Shown piece by piece: positions 1,327 through 37,465 of a DNA stretch of 64,000 nucleotides. The DNA comes from an uncultured Bacteroidales bacterium (GTDB lineage: Bacteria > Bacteroidota > Bacteroidia > Bacteroidales > UBA932). A program made the position numbers and the translations under genes. Positions within the stretch are counted from its first letter, which is position 1; every line of letters begins with the position of its first letter. The notes below the pieces were generated by a model that saw only the letters and a list, made by a program, of their open reading frames with translations, had not been told where the DNA came from and ran no database searches. The DNA lies in NCBI GenBank assembly GCA_944325505.1, contig CALVAJ010000009.1:2862-66861 (forward strand). The letters are read 5' to 3'.

Positions 1327-4300
1327 ATGTCTCTACAACCAAAAACACAGCGAATATCTTTCGCATCATCGAAAATTCTCCTTGAGTATCCTGACCTGCT
1401 GGAGGTACAGCTGAAATCGTTCCAGGATTTCTTCCAGCTGGATACTACACCGGAGAACAGGCGCAATGAAGGCCTGTACCAGGTGTTTCAGGAGATATTC
1501 CCGATCGAAGATACAAGAAACAATTACAAACTTGAATTCATCGATTATTTCATAGATCCGCCGCAGTATTCCATTGATGAATGCCTCGAGCGCGGATTGA
1601 CCTACAATGTGCCTCTGAAAGCGAAACTACGACTTTCCTGCAGTGATCCCGAGCATGAGGATTTCGACACAAGAGTCCAGGACGTATATCTTGGCAATAT
1701 CCCTTACATGACACCGGGAGGCACATTCATAATCAACGGTTCAGAAAGGATCATTGTTTCACAGCTTCACAGATCTCCCGGCGTATTCTTCGGACAGAGC
1801 GTACACGCAAACGGGACAAAACTGTATTCAGCCAGAATCATCCCGTTCAAGGGTTCATGGATAGAATTCGCGACTGACATCAACAATGTCATGTATGCAT
1901 ACATTGACCGCAAGAAAAAACTGCCTGTAACAACCCTGCTCAGAGCCATTGGATTCAACGGCGACAAGGACATTATAGACATATTCGGACTGGCAGACGA
2001 GATCGAGGCCACTCCAGAGGTCCTTAAAGCTAACGAGGGAAGGAAACTCGCGGCAAAAGTACTGAAAACATGGATTGAAGACTTCGTGGATGAGGACACG
2101 GGAGAAGTCATTCCCGTAGAAAGGACAATGCCTATCGTAGAACGTGGAGAAGTCCTTTGCGACGAGACGATACAGAAGCTTGCCGAAACTGATGTAAAGA
2201 CCATACTTCTGCAGAAAGAAGAGGCGAATGTCAATGAATACGCCATCATCTACAATACCCTGCAGAAAGACCCTACCAACACGGAAACCGAAGCTATCAA
2301 TTACATATACAAACAGCTCCGCAACTCTGAACCGCCTGATGAAGCTACGGCAAGGGATGTCATAGACAAACTGTTCTTCTCGGAGAAACGCTATGACCTC
2401 GGAGATGTCGGAAGGTACCGTCTCAACCAGAAACTGAATCTCAGCACACCGGACAATGTCCGCGTACTGACCAATACCGACATTATAGAAATCATAAAAT
2501 ACCTGATACTGCTGATCAACTCCAAGGCTACTGTCGACGATATCGACCACCTGAGCAACAGACGTATCAGGACTGTCGGCGAACAGCTTGCAAACCAGTT
2601 CAGCGTCGGCCTTTCAAGAATGGCAAGGACCATCCGCGAAAGGATGAACGTAAGGGACAGCGAGCAGTTCTCCCCTATCGACCTTATCAATGCAAAGACA
2701 CTGTCGTCAGTCATAAATTCCTTCTTCGGCACCAGCCAGCTGTCACAGTTCATGGACCAGACCAATCCGCTTTCAGAGATGACCCACAAACGCCGTCTCT
2801 CTGCACTCGGACCTGGAGGTCTTTCCCGTGACCGCGCCGGATTCGAAGTCAGGGACGTGCATTATACACATTACGGCCGTCTGTGCCCTATCGAGACGCC
2901 GGAAGGCCCGAACATCGGTCTGATATCTTCTCTGTGCGTTTATGCAAGAATCAATGACCTCGGATTCATTGAGACGCCTTACCGCAAGGTAAAGGACGGC
3001 AAGGTTGACCTCAGCCACGACGGATGGGTCTACATGAGTGCTGAACAGGAGGAAAACAGGATGATCTCCCTTGCCAATGTCAAGATGGACAACGACGGGA
3101 ATATCCTCGAAGACAGGATACAGTGCCGTCTGGGAGCAGACTTCCCTGTCGTGACCAAAGACGAGGTAAACCTGATGGACGTAGCTCCGAACCAGATAGC
3201 GTCAGTGGCCGCATCCCTGATTCCGTTCCTTGAGCATGACGATGCACACAGGGCGCTGATGGGTGCGAACATGATGCGTCAGGCAGTTCCTCTGCTCAAT
3301 CCGGAGTCCCCGATCGTAGGAACCGGACTCGAAGAAAGGGTATGCCTTGACTCAAGGACGCAGATTACCGCCGAAAGGAAAGGTGAAGTCGTATACGTGG
3401 ATGCAAACGAGATCCATGTGAAATACGACCGTACGGACGATGAAAAATTCGTAAGCTTTTCTCCTGACATTACCGTATACAAACTTCCGATTTACAGGAG
3501 GACGAACCAGAGCACCACTATCCTGCTCAAACCGATTGTCCGGAAAGGCGATACCGTGGAGAAAGGCCAGATAATGACCGAAGGATATGCAACGCAGAAC
3601 GGAGAGCTTGCACTCGGAAGGAACCTGAAAGTGGCATTCATGCCTTGGAAAGGATACAACTACGAGGACGCCATCGTTCTGTCGGAAAGAATGATCCGCT
3701 GGGATATCCTTACCTCGGTACATGTAGACGAATACATCACTGAAGTGCGCGACACCAAGCGCGGAATGGAAGAACTGACATCCGATATTCCAAATGTCAG
3801 CGAAGACGCTACCAAAAACCTTGACGAGAACGGTATAATCAGGATCGGTGCACATATCGAACCGGGAGATATCATGATCGGCAAGATCACCCCTAAGGGA
3901 GAGAGCGACCCTTCTCCTGAGGAAAAGCTTCTGAGAGCCATCTTCGGAGACAAGGCAGGTGACGTGAAGGACGCATCGCTTAAGGCGACTCCGTCACTGA
4001 GCGGAACCGTAATAGGAACAGCCCTCTACTCAAAAGTGGCAAAAGAGAGCAACCGAAAAGGCGCAAAGGCCGACCAGAAGGCAAAAATCGACAAGATCGA
4101 GGAAGAATTCAACACGAAGGCGGAAGCACTCAGGACCAGGTTCCTCGACAAGCTTTCCGCACTTGTCGAAGGGAAGAAGAGCGCCGGAATCAGTGACCTC
4201 TACGGGGTCGAAATCATCCCTAAGGACAAGACCATCGCATTTGCCGATATCCGCGATATCGATTACGAGAACATAAACTCAAGCAAGTGGACTGCCGACA

Positions 4301-5148
4301 AGAATACCAATATGCTTGTCCGCGAACTGATCAACAACTACTGTATTGCCTACAAGGAAGCAGCAGCAAAACACCGCCGCGCGGTCGACAAGATCAAGGT
4401 GGGCGACGAACTTCCTAACGGGGTGATGCAGCTGGCCAAAGTCTACGTCGCCAAGAAAAGGAAAATCAGGGTCGGAGACAAGATGGCCGGACGCCACGGA
4501 AACAAAGGTATTGTCGCCAAAGTTGTAAGAGACGAGGATATGCCGTTCCTTGAGGATGGTACTCCTGTAGACATAGTCCTCAACCCTCTCGGTGTGCCTT
4601 CCCGTATGAACCTCGGTCAGATATATGAGACCGTGCTCGGATGGGCAGGCGAAGAACTCGGACTCAAGTTCAGCACGCCGATCTTCGACGGTGCGAGCAT
4701 CGACAGCATCTGCCAGTACACCGACAAGGCAGGACTTCCACGATTCGGAAAGACCTACCTCAGGGACGGCGGTACCGGAGACTGGTTCGACCAGCCTGCT
4801 ACCGTAGGAGTGATCTATATGATCAAGCTCGGCCACATGGTAGATGACAAGATGCATGCAAGATCCATCGGACCTTACTCTCTGATAACCCAGCAGCCTC
4901 TCGGAGGAAAGGCACAGTTCGGCGGACAGAGATTCGGAGAGATGGAGGTGTGGGCTCTTGAAGCATTCGGAGCTTCCAACGTGCTGCAGGAAATCCTTAC
5001 TGTCAAGTCGGATGACGTAAACGGCAGGTCGAAGACCTACGAGGCCATCGTCAAAGGAGACCTGATGCCTACCCCTGGTATTCCGGAATCCCTCAACGTG
5101 CTGCTGCACGAACTCAGGGGCCTGGGACTCAAGGTTACATTGGACTAG
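1327..5148 (+). CDS. rpoB: DNA-directed RNA polymerase subunit beta
   Basis: 1273-aa ORF with canonical RpoB motifs (e.g. [23 protein letters not shown]-like region). Confidence 0.99.
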
Positions 5149-5179
5149 TTTATACACAGACAATTAGAAATATTGGGAT

Positions 5180-9424
<4,245 letters not shown>

Positions 9425-32535: not shown

Positions 32536-32739
32536 AGTTCGTCCATTTCGTGACAATTTTCCCAGACTTGAATATAGGAGACTCTTTCGGTCTGCCTGTC
32601 ACGATATGATTGACACCAAGCACGTAGATATTGCTGCATAATGATACTATTACACTCAAATATAGCTGAGCATAGGTATATTGCACATCGGTACTGATGT
32701 ACACCGACAAGTAGCACTGATATGCATTGGTACTGTTAC

Positions 32740-32975
32740 ACACCCGCAAATAGTACACATGGAAAAGTCTCTGATAACCAGGCAATCACACGATGTTGTC
32801 ATTTTCCAGGTGTAACATCACTCAGCACACCCGCAGTGACAAATATGCCCTGCAGGCATCTGCATGGCGGTTTTGCTATCGCAGGTGTGTCCAAACATGT
32901 GACACCCGCAGTTGAATCATCCTTGAAACATCATGATTTTCAGACATATGCACACTCTTCCCTACTGCAGGTGTG
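32740..32975 (+). repeat. Motif-array module A (ACACCYGCAG motifs in alternating orientation)
   Basis: Motifs lie at 32740-48, 32804-18, 32827-37, 32881-89, 32899-910 and 32967-75. The order and the 8/43/9/56-nt spacings equal those of module B read on the opposite strand. Confidence 0.85.
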
Positions 32976-33145
32976 CATATGGCCGCACGCTCCAGACGGC
33001 TACACGCCTCATACTGAAAACTATTCATTTGTACTGATGAAAACCCCGATATTACATGATGAGAGGAACTGCCGTGCCAGGTGGACGGCGGGATGAGCCA
33101 CCTGACACGCTTTCGCAGGAAAACCGTGGCAGGGGTCGGGAAAGC

Positions 33146-33598
33146 TCACGCTTTGATTTCCATTCTCAGGAGGGGGAACGGATTGCCCTGGTCATCGGTG
33201 CTGTCACGGCGGAATGTGCGGAATCCCATCCGCTCGTAGAATTTCACAGCCGACGGATTCTGCTCGTTTACATCGACATATTGCACATTCTGCTCTGCTA
33301 TCGCTTTTTGAATCAATACTTTTCCTATGCCTTTACGGAAAAAGGCCGGATGGAGGAACAGCATCTCTATCTTGCGAGCCTGGATACCCATAAATCCGAC
33401 ACACGCACTGTCCTCGTATGACACCCACAGTGTCCCGATCTGCCGGACGGCTTCTTCAGCCTGAGGGTAGAGGCTCCGTATATCTTCCTCTGTCAGAAAA
33501 TGATGACTTGCGCGGACGGAGGCTTCCCATATTCCGAGCAGCCCGGCAACGAGTTCCGGAGTTCTGTCATCCTTTTCAATGCTGTCGACTTTAATCAT
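33146..33598 (-). CDS. GNAT family N-acetyltransferase
   Basis: 150 aa with the acetyl-CoA binding motif region (FFRKGIGKVLI) and a GNAT-like C-terminal segment (VNEQNPSAVKFYERMGF). Confidence 0.88.
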   Translation of the reverse strand: MIKVDSIEKDDRTPELVAGLLGIWEASVRASHHFLTEEDIRSLYPQAEEAVRQIGTLWVSYEDSACVGFMGIQARKIEMLFLHPAFFRKGIGKVLIQKAIAEQNVQYVDVNEQNPSAVKFYERMGFRTFRRDSTDDQGNPFPLLRMEIKA

Positions 33599-33682
33599 AA
33601 TCCTTTTTTCAATTTCGGGCTGCTTCCATTGGCACCTCTACACCTCCATGAACGACACCACAGTAAACTGTCTGCAATGGAA

Positions 33683-35107
33683 TCATTCGGTTATGAAAGC
33701 CACCATGTCCTTCAGGACCTGTCTTGAAACGGTTTCGATAATTGTCCCGTATTCCGACGGGTTGCCTGTAGTACAATGCTGGAAAAGATGGTTCAGTCCC
33801 GGATATTCTTTTATGACAGATCCGCCGTTTTCAGGAAGACGGGCCCTCAAAGCAGACAGATTCATATCGGCATCTACTTGTGTATCAAGACTTCCATTCA
33901 AAGCAAATACAGGACAGGCAATCTTTCCTATGTCCTCTGCCGGATCGTACGCCACGAAACTGTCGACCCAGGCGCCAGTGCCCGAAAGTATGGTTTCAAG
34001 GTTCTTCAGTACGGCATCCGGAAGGTCTGCTCCAGATGATTTTGCAAGTGAATCCAGAATATATCCGGCATTTCCGACAGGCTCGCCAGGACGGACATGC
34101 TCTGCACGGTAATCCAGGACGTCAGCAAGTACCGTACAGTAATCGTCTGTCATCTGTTCAGGCATACCTGCCTGCAGGAGTGCTGTCCTGTTCTGCCGCA
34201 CAAGAATCTCCTTTCCGCTCACCGCTGCACCAGCCAGGCTTATGACAAAGTCGGCTTCACCTTTCCCTCCGAGCATGAAAGCTATCGTCCCTCCTTCACT
34301 ATGACCGAGCACCCCTACTCTGTCGAACCGGCCGAGCGAATCCAGATAACGTAATCCGGCAAGAGCATCTTCCATATTGGACTGTATCGTGACAGAGGCA
34401 GGATCTCCGGCAGATGCTCCGACTCCGCGGTCATCATATCTGAGCGTTGCAATCCCGTTTCTGGCAAAATAGTCAGCAATCACCAGGAACGGCTTATGGT
34501 TGAACAACTCCTCATCCCTGTTCTGCTGGCCGCTGCCGGTAACCATAAGGACAACAGGCACTTGAGCATCAGCCCCAGAGTCATGTCCCACCGGATACGA
34601 AAGCGTGCCGGCAAGCACGGTGTCACCGTTTGAGAAAAACACTTCCTCTGTCCGGTACGGAAAGGGAGGCACAGGTGTCTGGGGCCTTAATATTATCGGT
34701 TTCCCGTATCTGAGTTCCATTGGGAACGAGGCTCCTGACTGGGAAAAGTGCCCGGCCACGGACAATATGGAACCGCTGTCCTGATTCCTGTCGAATGTAC
34801 CTGAAAATGACGCACCGATAGCAGGAACAGATACTATAAGAGAATCTGCTGTGAATTTTTCCACTTCAGCCGGAATCCCTTTCACATTCTGATCTGGGCT
34901 GTCCATAGTACACACAGGGACGCCGTCCCGGCCTTCAGTGAAATTGAAAACGATATTCATGGAAACAGTTCCGACTGTAAGTTTTCCTGACCATGAGCCT
35001 GTCAGTTCCGGAAGTTCAAAGACTTTATCCTGCGCTACAGCATCTCCGCTTGATGCCGATACGGCCGCAAGCAACAGGACAGACACAGAAATCGCAATAT
35101 ATCTCAT
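33683..35107 (-). CDS. Secreted alpha/beta hydrolase
   Basis: 474 aa with a signal peptide, an N-terminal non-catalytic region and a nucleophile elbow GHSEGG. The substrate is unknown. Confidence 0.8.
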   Translation of the reverse strand: MRYIAISVSVLLLAAVSASSGDAVAQDKVFELPELTGSWSGKLTVGTVSMNIVFNFTEGRDGVPVCTMDSPDQNVKGIPAEVEKFTADSLIVSVPAIGASFSGTFDRNQDSGSILSVAGHFSQSGASFPMELRYGKPIILRPQTPVPPFPYRTEEVFFSNGDTVLAGTLSYPVGHDSGADAQVPVVLMVTGSGQQNRDEELFNHKPFLVIADYFARNGIATLRYDDRGVGASAGDPASVTIQSNMEDALAGLRYLDSLGRFDRVGVLGHSEGGTIAFMLGGKGEADFVISLAGAAVSGKEILVRQNRTALLQAGMPEQMTDDYCTVLADVLDYRAEHVRPGEPVGNAGYILDSLAKSSGADLPDAVLKNLETILSGTGAWVDSFVAYDPAEDIGKIACPVFALNGSLDTQVDADMNLSALRARLPENGGSVIKEYPGLNHLFQHCTTGNPSEYGTIIETVSRQVLKDMVAFITE

Positions 35108-35164
35108 TCGACAACAGTATTTTTATTGTCCCTGGCAGGAACTTTGGCAAAGCTATAGAATTTC

Positions 35165-35815
35165 TCAGCAGCCGGAAAGCCTGTTTTTCAGCTTGGTACG
35201 GACCACCTCAAAGACAGCCGGAAGTACCGATATGAAGATAATCGCCACGATAAGGAGCTTCAGGTTTTCCTGCACGAAAGGAAGGTCACCGAAGAAGTAG
35301 CCGACGTAGCAGAAAAGGGCTACCCAAGCGGCACCGCCGACAGCATTGTAAGTAATGAAATATGCATAGTGCATCTTTCCCATACCTGCGACAAAAGGAG
35401 CGAATGTCCTGACTATAGGGACGAAACGCGCAAGGATTATGGTCTTGCCGCCATATTTTTCATAGAAAGCGTGGGTCTTTTCCAGATAGCTCTGCTTGAA
35501 TATCCTTGAATCGGGATTGCTGAAAAGCTTGCGGCCGAAGAAGTGCCCTATCATATAGTTGCATGAATCCCCGAGGAATGCGGCGACAAACACGATCAGC
35601 ACCAGTAGATGAACATCCAGCGGGCATCCTGGCTGGGCTGCAATCGCTCCGGCTACGAAAAGCAGCGAATCGCCCGGAAGGAACGGAGTGAAGACCAGGC
35701 CTGTCTCGCAGAAGATTATAAGGAACAGAATCGCATAGGTCCACATATGGTATTCGTTTACGATATCCACCATATACTGGTCTATGTGAAGTATGAAATC
35801 AATTATAAAATCCAT
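35165..35815 (-). CDS. DedA family (VTT domain) membrane protein
   Basis: 216 aa with DedA-like motifs ([34 protein letters not shown]). Confidence 0.9.
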
Positions 35816-35857
35816 TGTCCTACAATAAATAACGTACCGATAAAATCATGAAAGTCG

Positions 35858-35865
35858 CAAAGATA
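35858..35865 (-). promoter_or_regulatory. TAnnTTTG -7 motif (TATCTTTG) for the DedA-hydrolase-GNAT cassette
   Basis: Reverse complement of CAAAGATA, about 43 nt upstream of the DedA ATG. Confidence 0.55.
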
Positions 35866-36086
35866 GGAATTTATTCCATAATTAAACCGGTCTTGTCTGT
35901 CGATATTCCTCCGAGGATGCAGTTTATCCGCACGTACTTCCGTAAGGCTTTTCAGTCTTTTTCCCACAGAGGCATGTCTATTTGCCACACCGCACATAGC
36001 TGTCTTCCTGAAGAAGACTTTCACTGCCATACTGAAATTTGACGGGCATAGCAGCATTCACAGCCATGCTGATCTCCTCTTCCCGA

Positions 36087-36321
36087 CACACCTGCAGTCG
36101 GACAATACGCATAACATTCTATAAATAAACACATTCCAGCAACAGGCCATTTGCAGGTGTCACACTTTTATGCACACCTGCAGTAACGGATGTGCCCTAC
36201 AGGTGCGTGTAGTGAGGTTTCACTACTGCAGGTGTGTCGGGAAATGTTACACCTGGAATTGACATTCTCCCTGAACTAATTGAATATCAACAATTTCTGC
36301 ATATACATCATTCTCAGGTGT
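36087..36321 (-). repeat. Motif-array module B (inverted partner of module A)
   Basis: Motifs (forward coordinates) lie at 36087-95, 36152-63, 36173-81, 36225-35, 36244-58 and 36313-21. Spacers of 56, 9, 43 and 8 nt mirror module A exactly. Confidence 0.85.
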
Positions 36322-36397
36322 GTGTCCTTGAAAAGTTGACGGGGCATTCGGATCCCAACTCGGTATGGATTATACCGTATTTTGCAGTCCCGCCATA

Positions 36398-36943
36398 ATC
36401 GAGTAGGAGGAAAACGAAGTAGTTTTCTTCCTACTTTCGTTTTCCGACCTCTCACACCACCGTACGTGCCGTTCGGCATACGGCGGTTCCTTAGTGCTGA
36501 TGCAATTTGATATATAAGTCCATAAGGCAAGGGTAGCCTTGAAGTTTCAGTCGCTCATTATTCATAGCTCGGCATAGTATCGGACTTCCTGCCGTGTTCC
36601 AATACCCGCCTCGGGTGTTAGCCCATTGCCAAGCCCTCCACTTGTCGATGCCACATCTAATGAGGTTCTTGAACCTTGTACCAACCTTCTTCCAACTCTT
36701 CCAGACATAACTGCGTATCCGGTGACGAAGCCACTCATCTGTCGTTTGGAGGATATTCCGCATATCAGCCAATTTAAAGTAGTTCATCCAGCCAATGATG
36801 TATAGGTTCAGCCTGCCTTTCAGTTTTTCATACCCCCAACCGTTGCTCCTTGATGTACACCCTTGCCTTGGGCTATACACTTCCCGCTATCGGGCGTGTT
36901 ACGGACTTGCACCGATTAGAGGATGTTCGTGCTGGGCGAACAA
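36398..36943 (-). mobile_element. Group II intron remnant (5'-truncated; maturase tail, domain V and a domain VI-like hairpin)
   Basis: Only the RT thumb/maturase C-terminus remains. Domain V reads CCGCCGTA-TGCC-gaac-GGCA-cg-TACGGTGG (36457-36486) with the classic 2-nt bulge. A long hairpin follows, and a possible bulged A lies about 7 nt before a putative 3' end near 36398. No domain I and no RT finger/palm coding is present. Confidence 0.8.
36491..36880 (-). pseudogene. Group II intron reverse transcriptase/maturase, C-terminal fragment only
   Basis: 129 codons (TSRSNGWGYEKLKGRLNLYIIGWMNYFKLADM...WKSWKKVGTRFKNLIRCGI...) match the X/maturase region. The frame is closed by TAG just upstream and the RT domains are absent. 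Confidence 0.85.
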
Positions 36944-36999: not shown

Positions 37000-37077
37000 T
37001 GGTGGGAGCAGAGGGAGTCGAACCCCCGACCCTCTGCTTGTAAGGCAGACGCTCTGAACCAACTGAGCTATGCTCCC
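37000..37077 (-). tRNA. tRNA-Val (anticodon TAC), CCA encoded
   Basis: The minus strand reads GGGAGCATAGCTCAGTTGGTTCAGAGCGTCTGCCTTACAAGCAGAGGGTCGGGGGTTCGACTCCCTCTGCTCCCACCA. The anticodon loop is CTTACAA. Confidence 0.92.
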
Positions 37078-37093
37078 TTTTTTCGTTTCTTTT

Positions 37094-37465
37094 CAGAGAT
37101 TTCTGCGTTATGCTTCGTATCATCAGTCAGTCATTTACGAAAGTAAACTCCTTCCTTCTTCTCTCGCATGCCTTGATCTCTCTGAAAATAAACTTCAAAA
37201 GAACGATGCTTGTCTTTTTGGCGATTACTGCGTTGGACATCGTGTCGTCGGTCAGTCATTTACAGGAGTAAACTCCTTCCCTCCTCCCTTGTCCACCTTG
37301 TACTCACCAAAAACAAACTTCAAAATAACATCATTTATTTCAAGAGATTTCTGCGTTATGCTTCGTATCATCAGTCAGTCATTTACGAAAGTAAATTCCT
37401 TCCTTCTTCACTTGCATGCCTTAAACTCTCCTAAAACAACCTTCAAAAATCTTGAAAGAACTTCC
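37094..37465. repeat. Tandem repeat, 3 units of about 124 bp
   Basis: The anchor CTGCGTT lies at 37103, 37228 and 37351 (periods 125 and 123). Units 1 and 3 share an identical 53-nt run and are similar over about the first 80 nt. Unit 2 is more diverged but keeps TCAGTCATTTAC..AGTAAACTCCTTCC and AAACTTCAAAA. Confidence 0.9.

Follow-up and report, generated by a model that had tools for sequence, protein, structure and literature searches.

In a 64,000-nucleotide stretch of the genome of an uncultured Bacteroidales bacterium (contig CALVAJ010000009.1; the whole stretch is referred to below as the window) two arrays of a short repeated site, here called modules A and B, flank three genes that code for a GNAT, an alpha/beta hydrolase and a DedA protein, the one array being opposite in polarity to the other. 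Comparative analysis revealed that both belong to a family of intergenic elements of fixed length, more than 20 copies of which are found in Ca. Cryptobacteroides and related uncultured Bacteroidales, and that such modules also adjoin a gene whose product has the motifs and the predicted fold of the HUH transposases. We consider it likely that modules A and B are independent copies, drawn from two subfamilies, of atypical repeats of the REP (repetitive extragenic palindrome), BIME (bacterial interspersed mosaic element) and REPIN (REP doublet forming a hairpin) kind in Cryptobacteroides and other Bacteroidales, and that these are maintained in trans by a divergent HUH transposase resembling the RAYTs (REP-associated tyrosine transposases). 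The original prediction, made from the letters of the window, had drawn attention to the two arrays without recognizing in them any described class of element; the combination of REP/BIME/REPIN and RAYT fits them, and atypical versions of it in Bacteroidetes have been noted earlier (PMC6006769).

What is known of the REP/REPIN-RAYT systems comes almost entirely from Proteobacteria, and the Bacteroidetes literature notes only 'atypical secondary structures' beside some RAYT genes. What is added here is a repeat family of Bacteroidales that is well bounded and for which site sequence, geometry and a candidate enzyme are given, so that recognition of a multi-hairpin array by an HUH transposase becomes directly testable.

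Architecture and dispersal of the module

Each of the two modules contains six copies of a site of about 12 bp, GCACACCTGCAG, in alternating orientation and with matched spacing. With distances counted from start to start between forward (F; ACACCYG) and reverse (R; CAGGTGT) cores, module A has the layout F(67)R(20)F(55)R(20)F(66)R and module B the layout F(66)R(20)F(55)R(20)F(66)R, and the two align with only one gap, of 1 nt. Both the ordered arrays at like spacing and the use of one site in alternating orientation had been read correctly from the window. The word ACACCYGCA occurs there 10 times against an expectation of 0.81, a count that none of 100 shuffles attained, and eight of the 10 occurrences fall within the two modules. 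Inverted termini of 12 bp (GCACACCTGCAG...CTGCAGGTGTGC) close the module at its ends, and while its location had been given properly, its extent is slightly larger than first described (32738-32976 and 36085-36323). The parts of the two copies and the sequences attached to them are as follows, where L-numbers denote the loci or contigs compared:

32738..32976, + strand: module A, a putative REP-cluster element of 239 bp with six sites, 'A' subfamily
32740, 32827 and 32902, + strand: starts of the forward ACACCCG cores of module A
32807, 32882 and 32968, + strand: starts of the reverse CAGGTGT cores of module A
32977..33059, + strand: A-subfamily linker between module A and the minisatellite, also in L002, L011, L016, L030 and L036
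33060..33140, + strand: remnant of a 52-bp hairpin minisatellite, about 1.5 units (unit CACCTGG, 23 nt, CCAGGTG)
36049..36084, - strand: right-hand extension of the B subfamily (GTCGGGAAGAGGAGATCAG...) with a short duplicated flank, not in L033
36085..36323, - strand: module B, a putative REP-cluster element of 239 bp, 'B' subfamily, polarity inverted relative to A
36321, 36235 and 36160, - strand: starts of the forward cores of module B
36255, 36180 and 36094, - strand: starts of the reverse cores of module B

These bounds are sharp. A family profile searched with nhmmer recovered module A at 32739-32976 (197.8 bits on the + strand versus 107.5 on the - strand) and module B at 36322-36087 (207.1 bits on the - strand versus 149.6 on the + strand). 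Similarity of module A to other copies begins at 32733-32739, and the homology of the module B flank to the module-free contig L033 ends at 36324, one base beyond the terminus of the element, to restart at 36048; on the GNAT side it ends at 33145. Across the subfamilies flanks cease to be alignable at GCACACCTG (GCACACC...) on the left and at CAGGTGTGC (...GGTGTGC) on the right.

The spacers had been described as essentially unrelated. Alignment of A with B shows instead that 81 of 166 spacer positions (49%) are identical, against 26% expected at random, along with 61 of the 72 positions in site columns, and the longest identical run common to both is 17 bases; we therefore read the spacers, on the strength of this alignment, as diverged homologues that have accumulated almost no indels. 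A further difference that had been pointed out, between the forward copies of A and B, holds in part: all three forward sites of A read ACACCCG, with CAGGTGT in the reverse sites, and the first forward copy of B is ACACCTGAG rather than ACACCTGCA. Across the family the C of this C/T difference is seen in 15 forward sites, and the equivalent G in none of 63 reverse sites. Sites for PstI and AarI/BspMI lie within the motif, but the window shows no avoidance of such words elsewhere, and a restriction-site decoy explanation was set aside.

To place the modules in a wider context we scanned one genome per species with a strict three-site pattern, a search for further copies that had also been proposed on the basis of the window. 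This returned 32 stretches, 19 of which lie on 19 contigs from five Cryptobacteroides or uncultured Bacteroidales bins (nine from Ca. Cryptobacteroides faecipullorum, three from Ca. C. avicola and the rest from three uncultured Bacteroidales bins). Most of these contigs display the full six-site layout, the others having one or two diverged cores. The remaining 13 stretches come from other phyla, contain three sites only (four in L023 and L024) and no six-site module, and look like chance matches. The same pattern gave no match in viral contigs and a single one in JGI metagenomes, which lies within a coding sequence, does not have the module layout and likewise looks like chance; no similarity of the modules to plasmids or phages was found.

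An alignment of 22 copies, 21 of them distinct, shows how rigid the module is: 17 of the distinct copies are 238 nt and four are 239 nt in length, even though the median identity over the alignment is 86% in site columns and only 48% in spacer columns. Heavy substitution with almost no indels implies that the spacing is clearly under constraint. Further, at orthologous loci 13 of 216 positions have changed in site columns versus 66 of 497 in spacer columns, so that sites change about half as fast as spacers and stay constrained after insertion. These figures bear out the earlier suggestion that selection acts on the architecture and that the arrays are not a decaying duplication.

Every copy is intergenic, and the orientation relative to neighboring genes is inconsistent. 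The module has dyad symmetry, such that the family profile matches every copy in both directions, the forward one being better by about 20-90 bits. Modules of both the A and the B type occur solo, at many unrelated intergenic sites, and no longer element with the same termini was found. As different subfamilies, A and B have detectable similarity largely confined to the central R1...F3 core (window 32803-32927), which consists of two inverted imperfect palindromes and a 43-nt spacer. Type A continues into a linker of about 85 bp (75-91% identical by blastn across other A-type copies) followed by tandem 52-bp hairpin units; the whole composite of about 985 bp recurs at least five times in Ca. 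C. faecipullorum. In the window the minisatellite remnant stops 5 nt short of the GNAT stop codon at 33146, and 33072-33133 matches every unit of the 52-bp arrays in L002 (about six units) and L030 (11.7 units). The B subfamily has short extensions of its own, and the one beginning with GTCGGGAAGAGGAGATCAG is common to L041, L053 and L054.

The sites can pair with one another in a nested arrangement. In this model 84% of cells pair, versus 22-50% when the partners are slid, and the minimum-energy fold is a rod with stems F1:R3, R1:F3 and F2:R2 (z-scores from -2.7 to -4.7). Spacer 1 and the reverse complement of spacer 3 agree at 43% of positions, against a random expectation of 26%.

A RAYT-like gene flanked by the modules

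A candidate for an enzyme acting on these repeats came from L029, where an open reading frame (ORF) at 5301-6218 on the - strand, coding for 305 aa, overlaps a full module by about 25 nt. An all-against-all BLAST comparison of the ORFs within 3 kb of the modules gave no recurrent neighbor, since the gene is present at only one of those loci; it was recovered by searching the nearest ORFs with Pfam. The protein matches the Pfam family Y1_Tnp (PF01797; E-value 3.4e-4, 21.2 bits) and the NCBIfam model NF047646, 'REP-associated tyrosine transposase' (E-value 1.3e-5, 25 bits), and contains the motifs SNHVH, corresponding to the HUH signature, and VSYVYKNPAGH. In an alignment of nine relatives LMSNHVH, YxYxNP and YPWSS are conserved, and eight of the nine family members match Y1_Tnp with E-values of 0.01 or less. 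The family profile places these motifs opposite HMH, YIYINP and WPFST in E. coli TnpA-REP (PDB: 4er8), at a non-significant E-value of 0.4. In the AlphaFold model of the protein (mean predicted local distance difference test score, pLDDT, 68.7) the N-terminal 115 residues are confidently predicted, and its best PDB matches in Foldseek are nearly all Y1 HUH transposases (2ec2, 2xm3, 2a6o, 2vjv and 4er8, including those of ISDra2 and IS608), with tRNA-His guanylyltransferases interleaved from rank 14; the match to 4er8 has a root-mean-square deviation of 3.7 A over 125 columns. Thus, by its motifs and predicted fold the protein qualifies as a Y1 HUH transposase, with the caveat that all its scores are sub-threshold. 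An exhaustive profile search showed that the full-length architecture is not rare, there being 240 clusters with E-values of 1e-30 or less.

The surroundings of the gene and its homologues were compared next; P-numbers denote the RAYT-like proteins compared, and identities are relative to the L029 protein (P0121).

L029 and L056-L061: P0121 (identical); full module adjoining the gene at its 3' end and, about 70 bp upstream of the gene start, a 28-bp copy of the module terminus
L055: P0123 (61%), genomic context different; a full module on each side, with site variant ACACCTGGAAT
L064 and L065: P0122 and P0124 (63-65%); module pieces on both sides, within which these short contigs end
L062: P0125 (51%); one unit of like design, upstream only, with a different stem, CCCACCTAAAA ... 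TTTTAAGTGGG
L066 and L067: P0127 and P0128 (22-26%); hairpin arrays of 52/53-bp period on both sides, with different stems

Hence modules or pieces of them lie on both sides of the gene at the four loci of close homologues (L029/L056-L061, L055, L064 and L065); in L055 modules at 4624-4858 and 6056-6286 bracket the gene at 5001-5876. The arrays that flank P0127 and P0128 are designed like the 52-bp array that adjoins module A. Only one of the 18 module-bearing loci of the genome scan that were screened for neighboring proteins (L029) carries the gene, and P0121 is found at one locus in all eight contigs, from which the gene appears to be single-copy. The arrangement as a whole, as judged from the loci compared, resembles a REPtron: hairpin repeats of its own bracket the HUH transposase gene, the stem sequence varies in step with the protein, and many solo copies exist at other places. 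A conserved sequence, AAACGGATAAT...TAGCTTTG, is also found between the gene start and the end of the module upstream (L029 6219-6300, L055 4860-5000, L064 100-169 and L065 140-204), and its second part fits the Bacteroidetes TAnnTTTG -7 promoter box.

The likeness to the REP/BIME elements and TnpA-REP of E. coli and other Proteobacteria extends to several features. The repeats are in both cases extragenic, multicopy, hairpin-forming and clustered in alternating orientation; the apparently single-copy HUH/Y1 gene is bracketed by its own repeats, with the HUH and YxxxNP motifs aligning; and there is no target-site duplication. They differ in that the E. coli REP is a hairpin of 20-40 nt as opposed to the fixed 238-bp, three-unit module, and in that the E. 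coli enzyme has 165 aa as opposed to 288-305 aa, the proteins described here having an additional C-terminal region of about 170 aa. The spacer of a REPIN is less conserved than its REPs. As outlined in PMC3116915 and PMC3337134, REPINs consist of two inverted REPs with a spacer and are mobilized by RAYTs; those of Pseudomonas fluorescens and its relatives share with the modules the inverted pair and spacer, the non-autonomous nature, the service by a RAYT (here a putative one) and the persistence at orthologous loci. The central R1...F3 core, at about 110-125 nt, is also REPIN-like in size. Unlike REPINs, the modules have two outer arms with terminal half-sites, and weakly complementary spacers (43%), are often joined to the 52-bp minisatellite, and reside in a different host phylum.

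Within the RAYT classification the nearest group by phylum is TnpA-Y1 subclass 2.6, which equals RAYT group 5 and is found mostly in Bacteroidetes (Quentin et al. 2018, PMC6006769). When compared by motifs and length, its members resemble the present proteins in the HUH motif, of the type NH[LIV]H (here NHVH), and in the SS tail (here PWSS), but have a median of 179 aa with YIH[QN]NP and WQ, whereas the proteins described here have 288-305 aa with YVY[KR]NP and RWPH; the repeats that go with subclass 2.6 have been described in little detail. The IS200/IS605 insertion sequences and the palindrome-associated transposable elements (PATEs), which derive from them and are non-autonomous, likewise have the Y1 HUH fold, to which the best structural matches of the predicted model belong, subterminal hairpins recognized as single-stranded DNA and no target duplication; in contrast to these, the gene here is at one fixed locus and not in several identical copies, its tyrosine motif is of the RAYT type (NP and not NQ), and it is flanked by entire clusters where they have a single hairpin at the left end and another at the right. 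Finally, BrickBuilt of P. gingivalis is a MITE (miniature inverted-repeat transposable element) with an internal minisatellite, comprising a 'leader', a spacerless tandem repeat, a 'tail' and small inverted-repeat ends (PMC4596501). It too is an intergenic, modular Bacteroidales element with about 20 copies, comparable to the A-type succession of module, linker and 52-bp array, but its repeat is 23 nt, no enzyme has been reported for it (PMC4596501) and it has no sequence similarity to the modules.

Taken together, we propose that the module acts as a non-coding, non-autonomous degenerate palindrome of 238 bp, in which three hairpin-capable units would have copies of GCACACCTGCAG as their stems, and that its cognate enzyme would be the divergent RAYT-like HUH/Y1 protein, encoded once elsewhere in the genome and itself bracketed by modules. 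By analogy with TnpA-REP of E. coli and TnpA of IS200/IS605, the enzyme may recognize the hairpins in single-stranded DNA, for example at replication forks, and cut and rejoin beside them, by which the repeats would be dispersed and maintained. Such recognition would need both a conserved stem sequence and the geometry of the units, and so would keep sites and spacing while the loops drift. Action of the enzyme on these hairpins, the strand it would use, present-day mobility of the repeats and any advantage to the host, for instance through the ends or the stability of transcripts, are likewise inferred. The two copies in the window would then be separate old insertions from two subfamilies, which by chance are opposite in polarity around three genes.

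Strain comparisons and competing explanations

The genes between the modules, identified with Pfam, are context and not part of the element:

33146-33598, - strand: GNAT
33683-35107, - strand: alpha/beta hydrolase
35165-35815, - strand: DedA/VTT

This block (33146..35815) is syntenic in L033, L053 and L054, whether or not modules are present, between ABC/MacB genes and tRNA-Val on one side and tRNA-Arg and a VCA0040-like gene on the other; L053 and L054 keep the neighbors seen in the window wherever their contigs reach, and L033 shares the tRNA-Val side only. In L033 the dedA-hydrolase-GNAT block is found with neither module, and in L035, a contig that stops just past GNAT, without the dedA-side module. 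Both have a 1.96-kb segment (HxlR and a 277-aa protein) in place of window 36049-36323, and in L054 the HxlR segment and module B are present together. L053, from a lineage diverged by about 12-14%, has both modules at orthologous positions. Contigs with identical VCA0040-like or DedA proteins show the arrangement of the window, a break at the repeat point or a different 1.96-kb segment.

The original prediction raised the possibility of a non-autonomous composite cassette, or an invertible segment, that contains GNAT, hydrolase and DedA and has the inverted modules as its working ends. This idea owes its appeal to the opposite polarity of A and B around the three genes. The block is, moreover, 97.3% identical between window 33145-36048 and L033 5768-8670, as compared with 81-86% for the ABC/MacB genes to the right, with breakpoints at the element bounds; such mosaic divergence points to a recent exchange by recombination whose breakpoints lie at the repeat elements. 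Yet the modules are self-contained and solo elsewhere, L033 has the block but neither module, L035 has it but lacks the dedA-side one, both modules are in place among the same chromosomal neighbors in the diverged L053, and the inverted arrangement, which the prediction suggested looking for by comparing strains, is absent among the 25 contigs with dedA or VCA0040-like genes. The longest run shared by A and B, being so short, would also make a poor substrate for homologous inversion. We find this explanation scarcely credible: the three genes are ordinary chromosomal genes rather than cargo, and the reading of their products is unchanged. Among the earlier candidates a 'hairpin-array RNA/ssDNA element' comes closest to the evidence. 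Its RNA version, in which the F/R stems would be the helices of a cis-acting element in an untranslated region or of a small RNA, could draw on the stable predicted folds, with z-scores down to -4.7, and on the C/T differences of the A subfamily, which would form G-U pairs on the strand that is transcribed together with the GNAT operon. It is nonetheless very improbable. Rfam, at gathering thresholds and permissively up to an E-value of 5, finds nothing on the modules and matches only the tRNAs and a group II intron domain V/VI; neither strand folds much better than the other; the orientation relative to neighboring genes is inconsistent; and no conserved TAnnTTTG box exists inside the modules, for which reason a promoter function was also rejected. 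The stem covariation test that had been recommended came out level with shuffled alignments on the aligned copies, and pairing potential with covariation at that level speaks against selection for an RNA fold and is in keeping with conserved stems being recognized by their sequence.

Movement as double-stranded DNA is the alternative offered by a classical MITE, a deletion derivative of a DDE-type insertion sequence in which F1/R3 would be the terminal inverted repeats and the four inner sites additional binding sites for the transposase. The 12-bp inverted termini, sharp bounds, multiple copies and intergenic location are all in keeping with this, and strict spacing of repeated sites is known from the multi-site ends of Mu, Tn7 and IS21. 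However, target-site duplications are absent both at the approximately 20 copies and at the L054/L033 indel, an absence that is expected for HUH enzymes; no DDE transposase with these termini was seen in about 400 kb of loci, and the only recurrent protein partner is the HUH/Y1 enzyme. We rate a MITE as improbable. Also unlikely, in our estimate, is that a host protein which binds double-stranded DNA (a nucleoid factor, an insulator or a global regulator) has in the module a phased array of sites, spread by recombination, with the RAYT-like gene as a bystander. Fixed spacing with free spacers and periods of 52/53 bp, close to five helical turns, would suit such an array, as would site conservation at orthologous loci, which fits a function at the host level. 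It would leave unexplained why modules, or arrays with different stems, are found beside each HUH family member examined and why the stem changes with the protein, and the position relative to promoters is inconsistent.

Several points weigh against the RAYT-dependent repeat interpretation that we favor. The sequence-model scores of the L029 protein are under the curated cut-offs (21.2 versus 23 bits for Pfam and 25 versus 80 bits for NCBIfam), its profile matches in PDB have E-values of just 0.2-0.6, the structural model is of medium confidence and the Foldseek E-values are only about 1e-3. The window itself contains no RAYT-like gene; the original prediction was right that there is no transposase adjacent to the modules there, the candidate cognate enzyme being encoded in related genomes. 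The canonical 5' GT[AG]G foot of REPs is not present at any stem, the termini reading GCACACCTG, an exception also reported for TnpA-Y1 subclass 2.6 and class 3 (PMC6006769), and the loops of 13-57 nt are far above those of the tight 20-40-nt hairpins of classical REPs. Compensatory covariation beyond site conservation is nil in the aligned copies (RNAalifold term -0.05; pair count equal to that of shuffles). The C/T asymmetry would fit tolerance of G-T pairs on one strand, but with just about five independent events behind it, it is suggestive only. The sole presence/absence polymorphism is a 291-bp indel between L054 and L033 (34 bp, the module and 19 bp, with 7 bp replaced); it extends past the module on both sides. 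No clean empty site was found among the loci compared, and the orthologous position of both modules in L053 means that recent movement is not demonstrated.

A more speculative extension, which we put forward tentatively and regard as doubtful, is that the 290-320-aa proteins form an uncharacterized Bacteroidales RAYT subclass (at least 240 clusters at 50% identity) whose extra C-terminal region might read hairpins as strictly phased arrays (periods of 52/53 bp, or the fixed 238-bp module with six sites) and not one by one, and that the system might be domesticated and not selfish, the repeats being kept for some role in the host, for instance in ending or insulating the transcripts downstream of tRNA genes and operons.

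Other features of the loci

The repeats have a bearing on genome assembly. Many metagenome contigs begin or end in a module (the ends of L036, L037, L060, L061, L064 and L065 fall inside one), so that the repeats act as assembly breakpoints in Cryptobacteroides, an abundant genus of the poultry gut. They also coincide with points of rearrangement between strains and are potential typing markers.

Four of the approximately 20 modules follow a tRNA gene (Arg, Val, His or Gly) downstream at a distance of 130-360 bp, in the same orientation and always with the F1 end facing the tRNA. These are modules A and B of the window and those at L001 3845-4080 (tRNA at 3617-3691) and L013 6397-6634 (tRNA at 6868-6941); the sequences between tRNA and module are unrelated to one another. 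In the window tRNA-Val (37000-37077, - strand) has directly upstream of it 2.9 tandem copies of a 125-bp unit (37091-37448); L033 and L054 have these repeats as well. A 5'-truncated group II intron remnant (36396-36941, - strand) follows the intrinsic terminator of this tRNA immediately, with an Rfam match to domain V/VI at 36398-36488 and a maturase (GIIM) remnant ORF at 36491-36880; in L033, L035 and L054 there is no intron remnant and the terminator runs straight into window position 36395.

Within the three-gene block, a crcB gene (fluoride channel, PF02537) lies between dedA and the hydrolase in L053 (1219-1593) and L054 (6468-6842); the corresponding gap in the window (35108-35164) and in L033 is 57 bp without crcB. 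A segment of 1037 bp comprising a module and a gene for a 173-aa PLD-like nuclease with a single HKD motif (PF13091) is 88% identical between L010 6526-7559 and L031 6501-7535, from Ca. C. avicola and Ca. C. faecipullorum, with different flanks. This nuclease adjoins the modules of L010 and L031 only, and with no recurrence elsewhere it was rejected as a module partner. Lastly, about 60 bp just outside the B-type left end are common to the unrelated loci L013 (6654-6717) and L033 (5715-5773). This stretch holds a GATGAAATGCGCTTCATC hairpin and GCCAGCGGTGCCC, is present in L033 without a module, and may be a preferred target or a piece of a larger composite.

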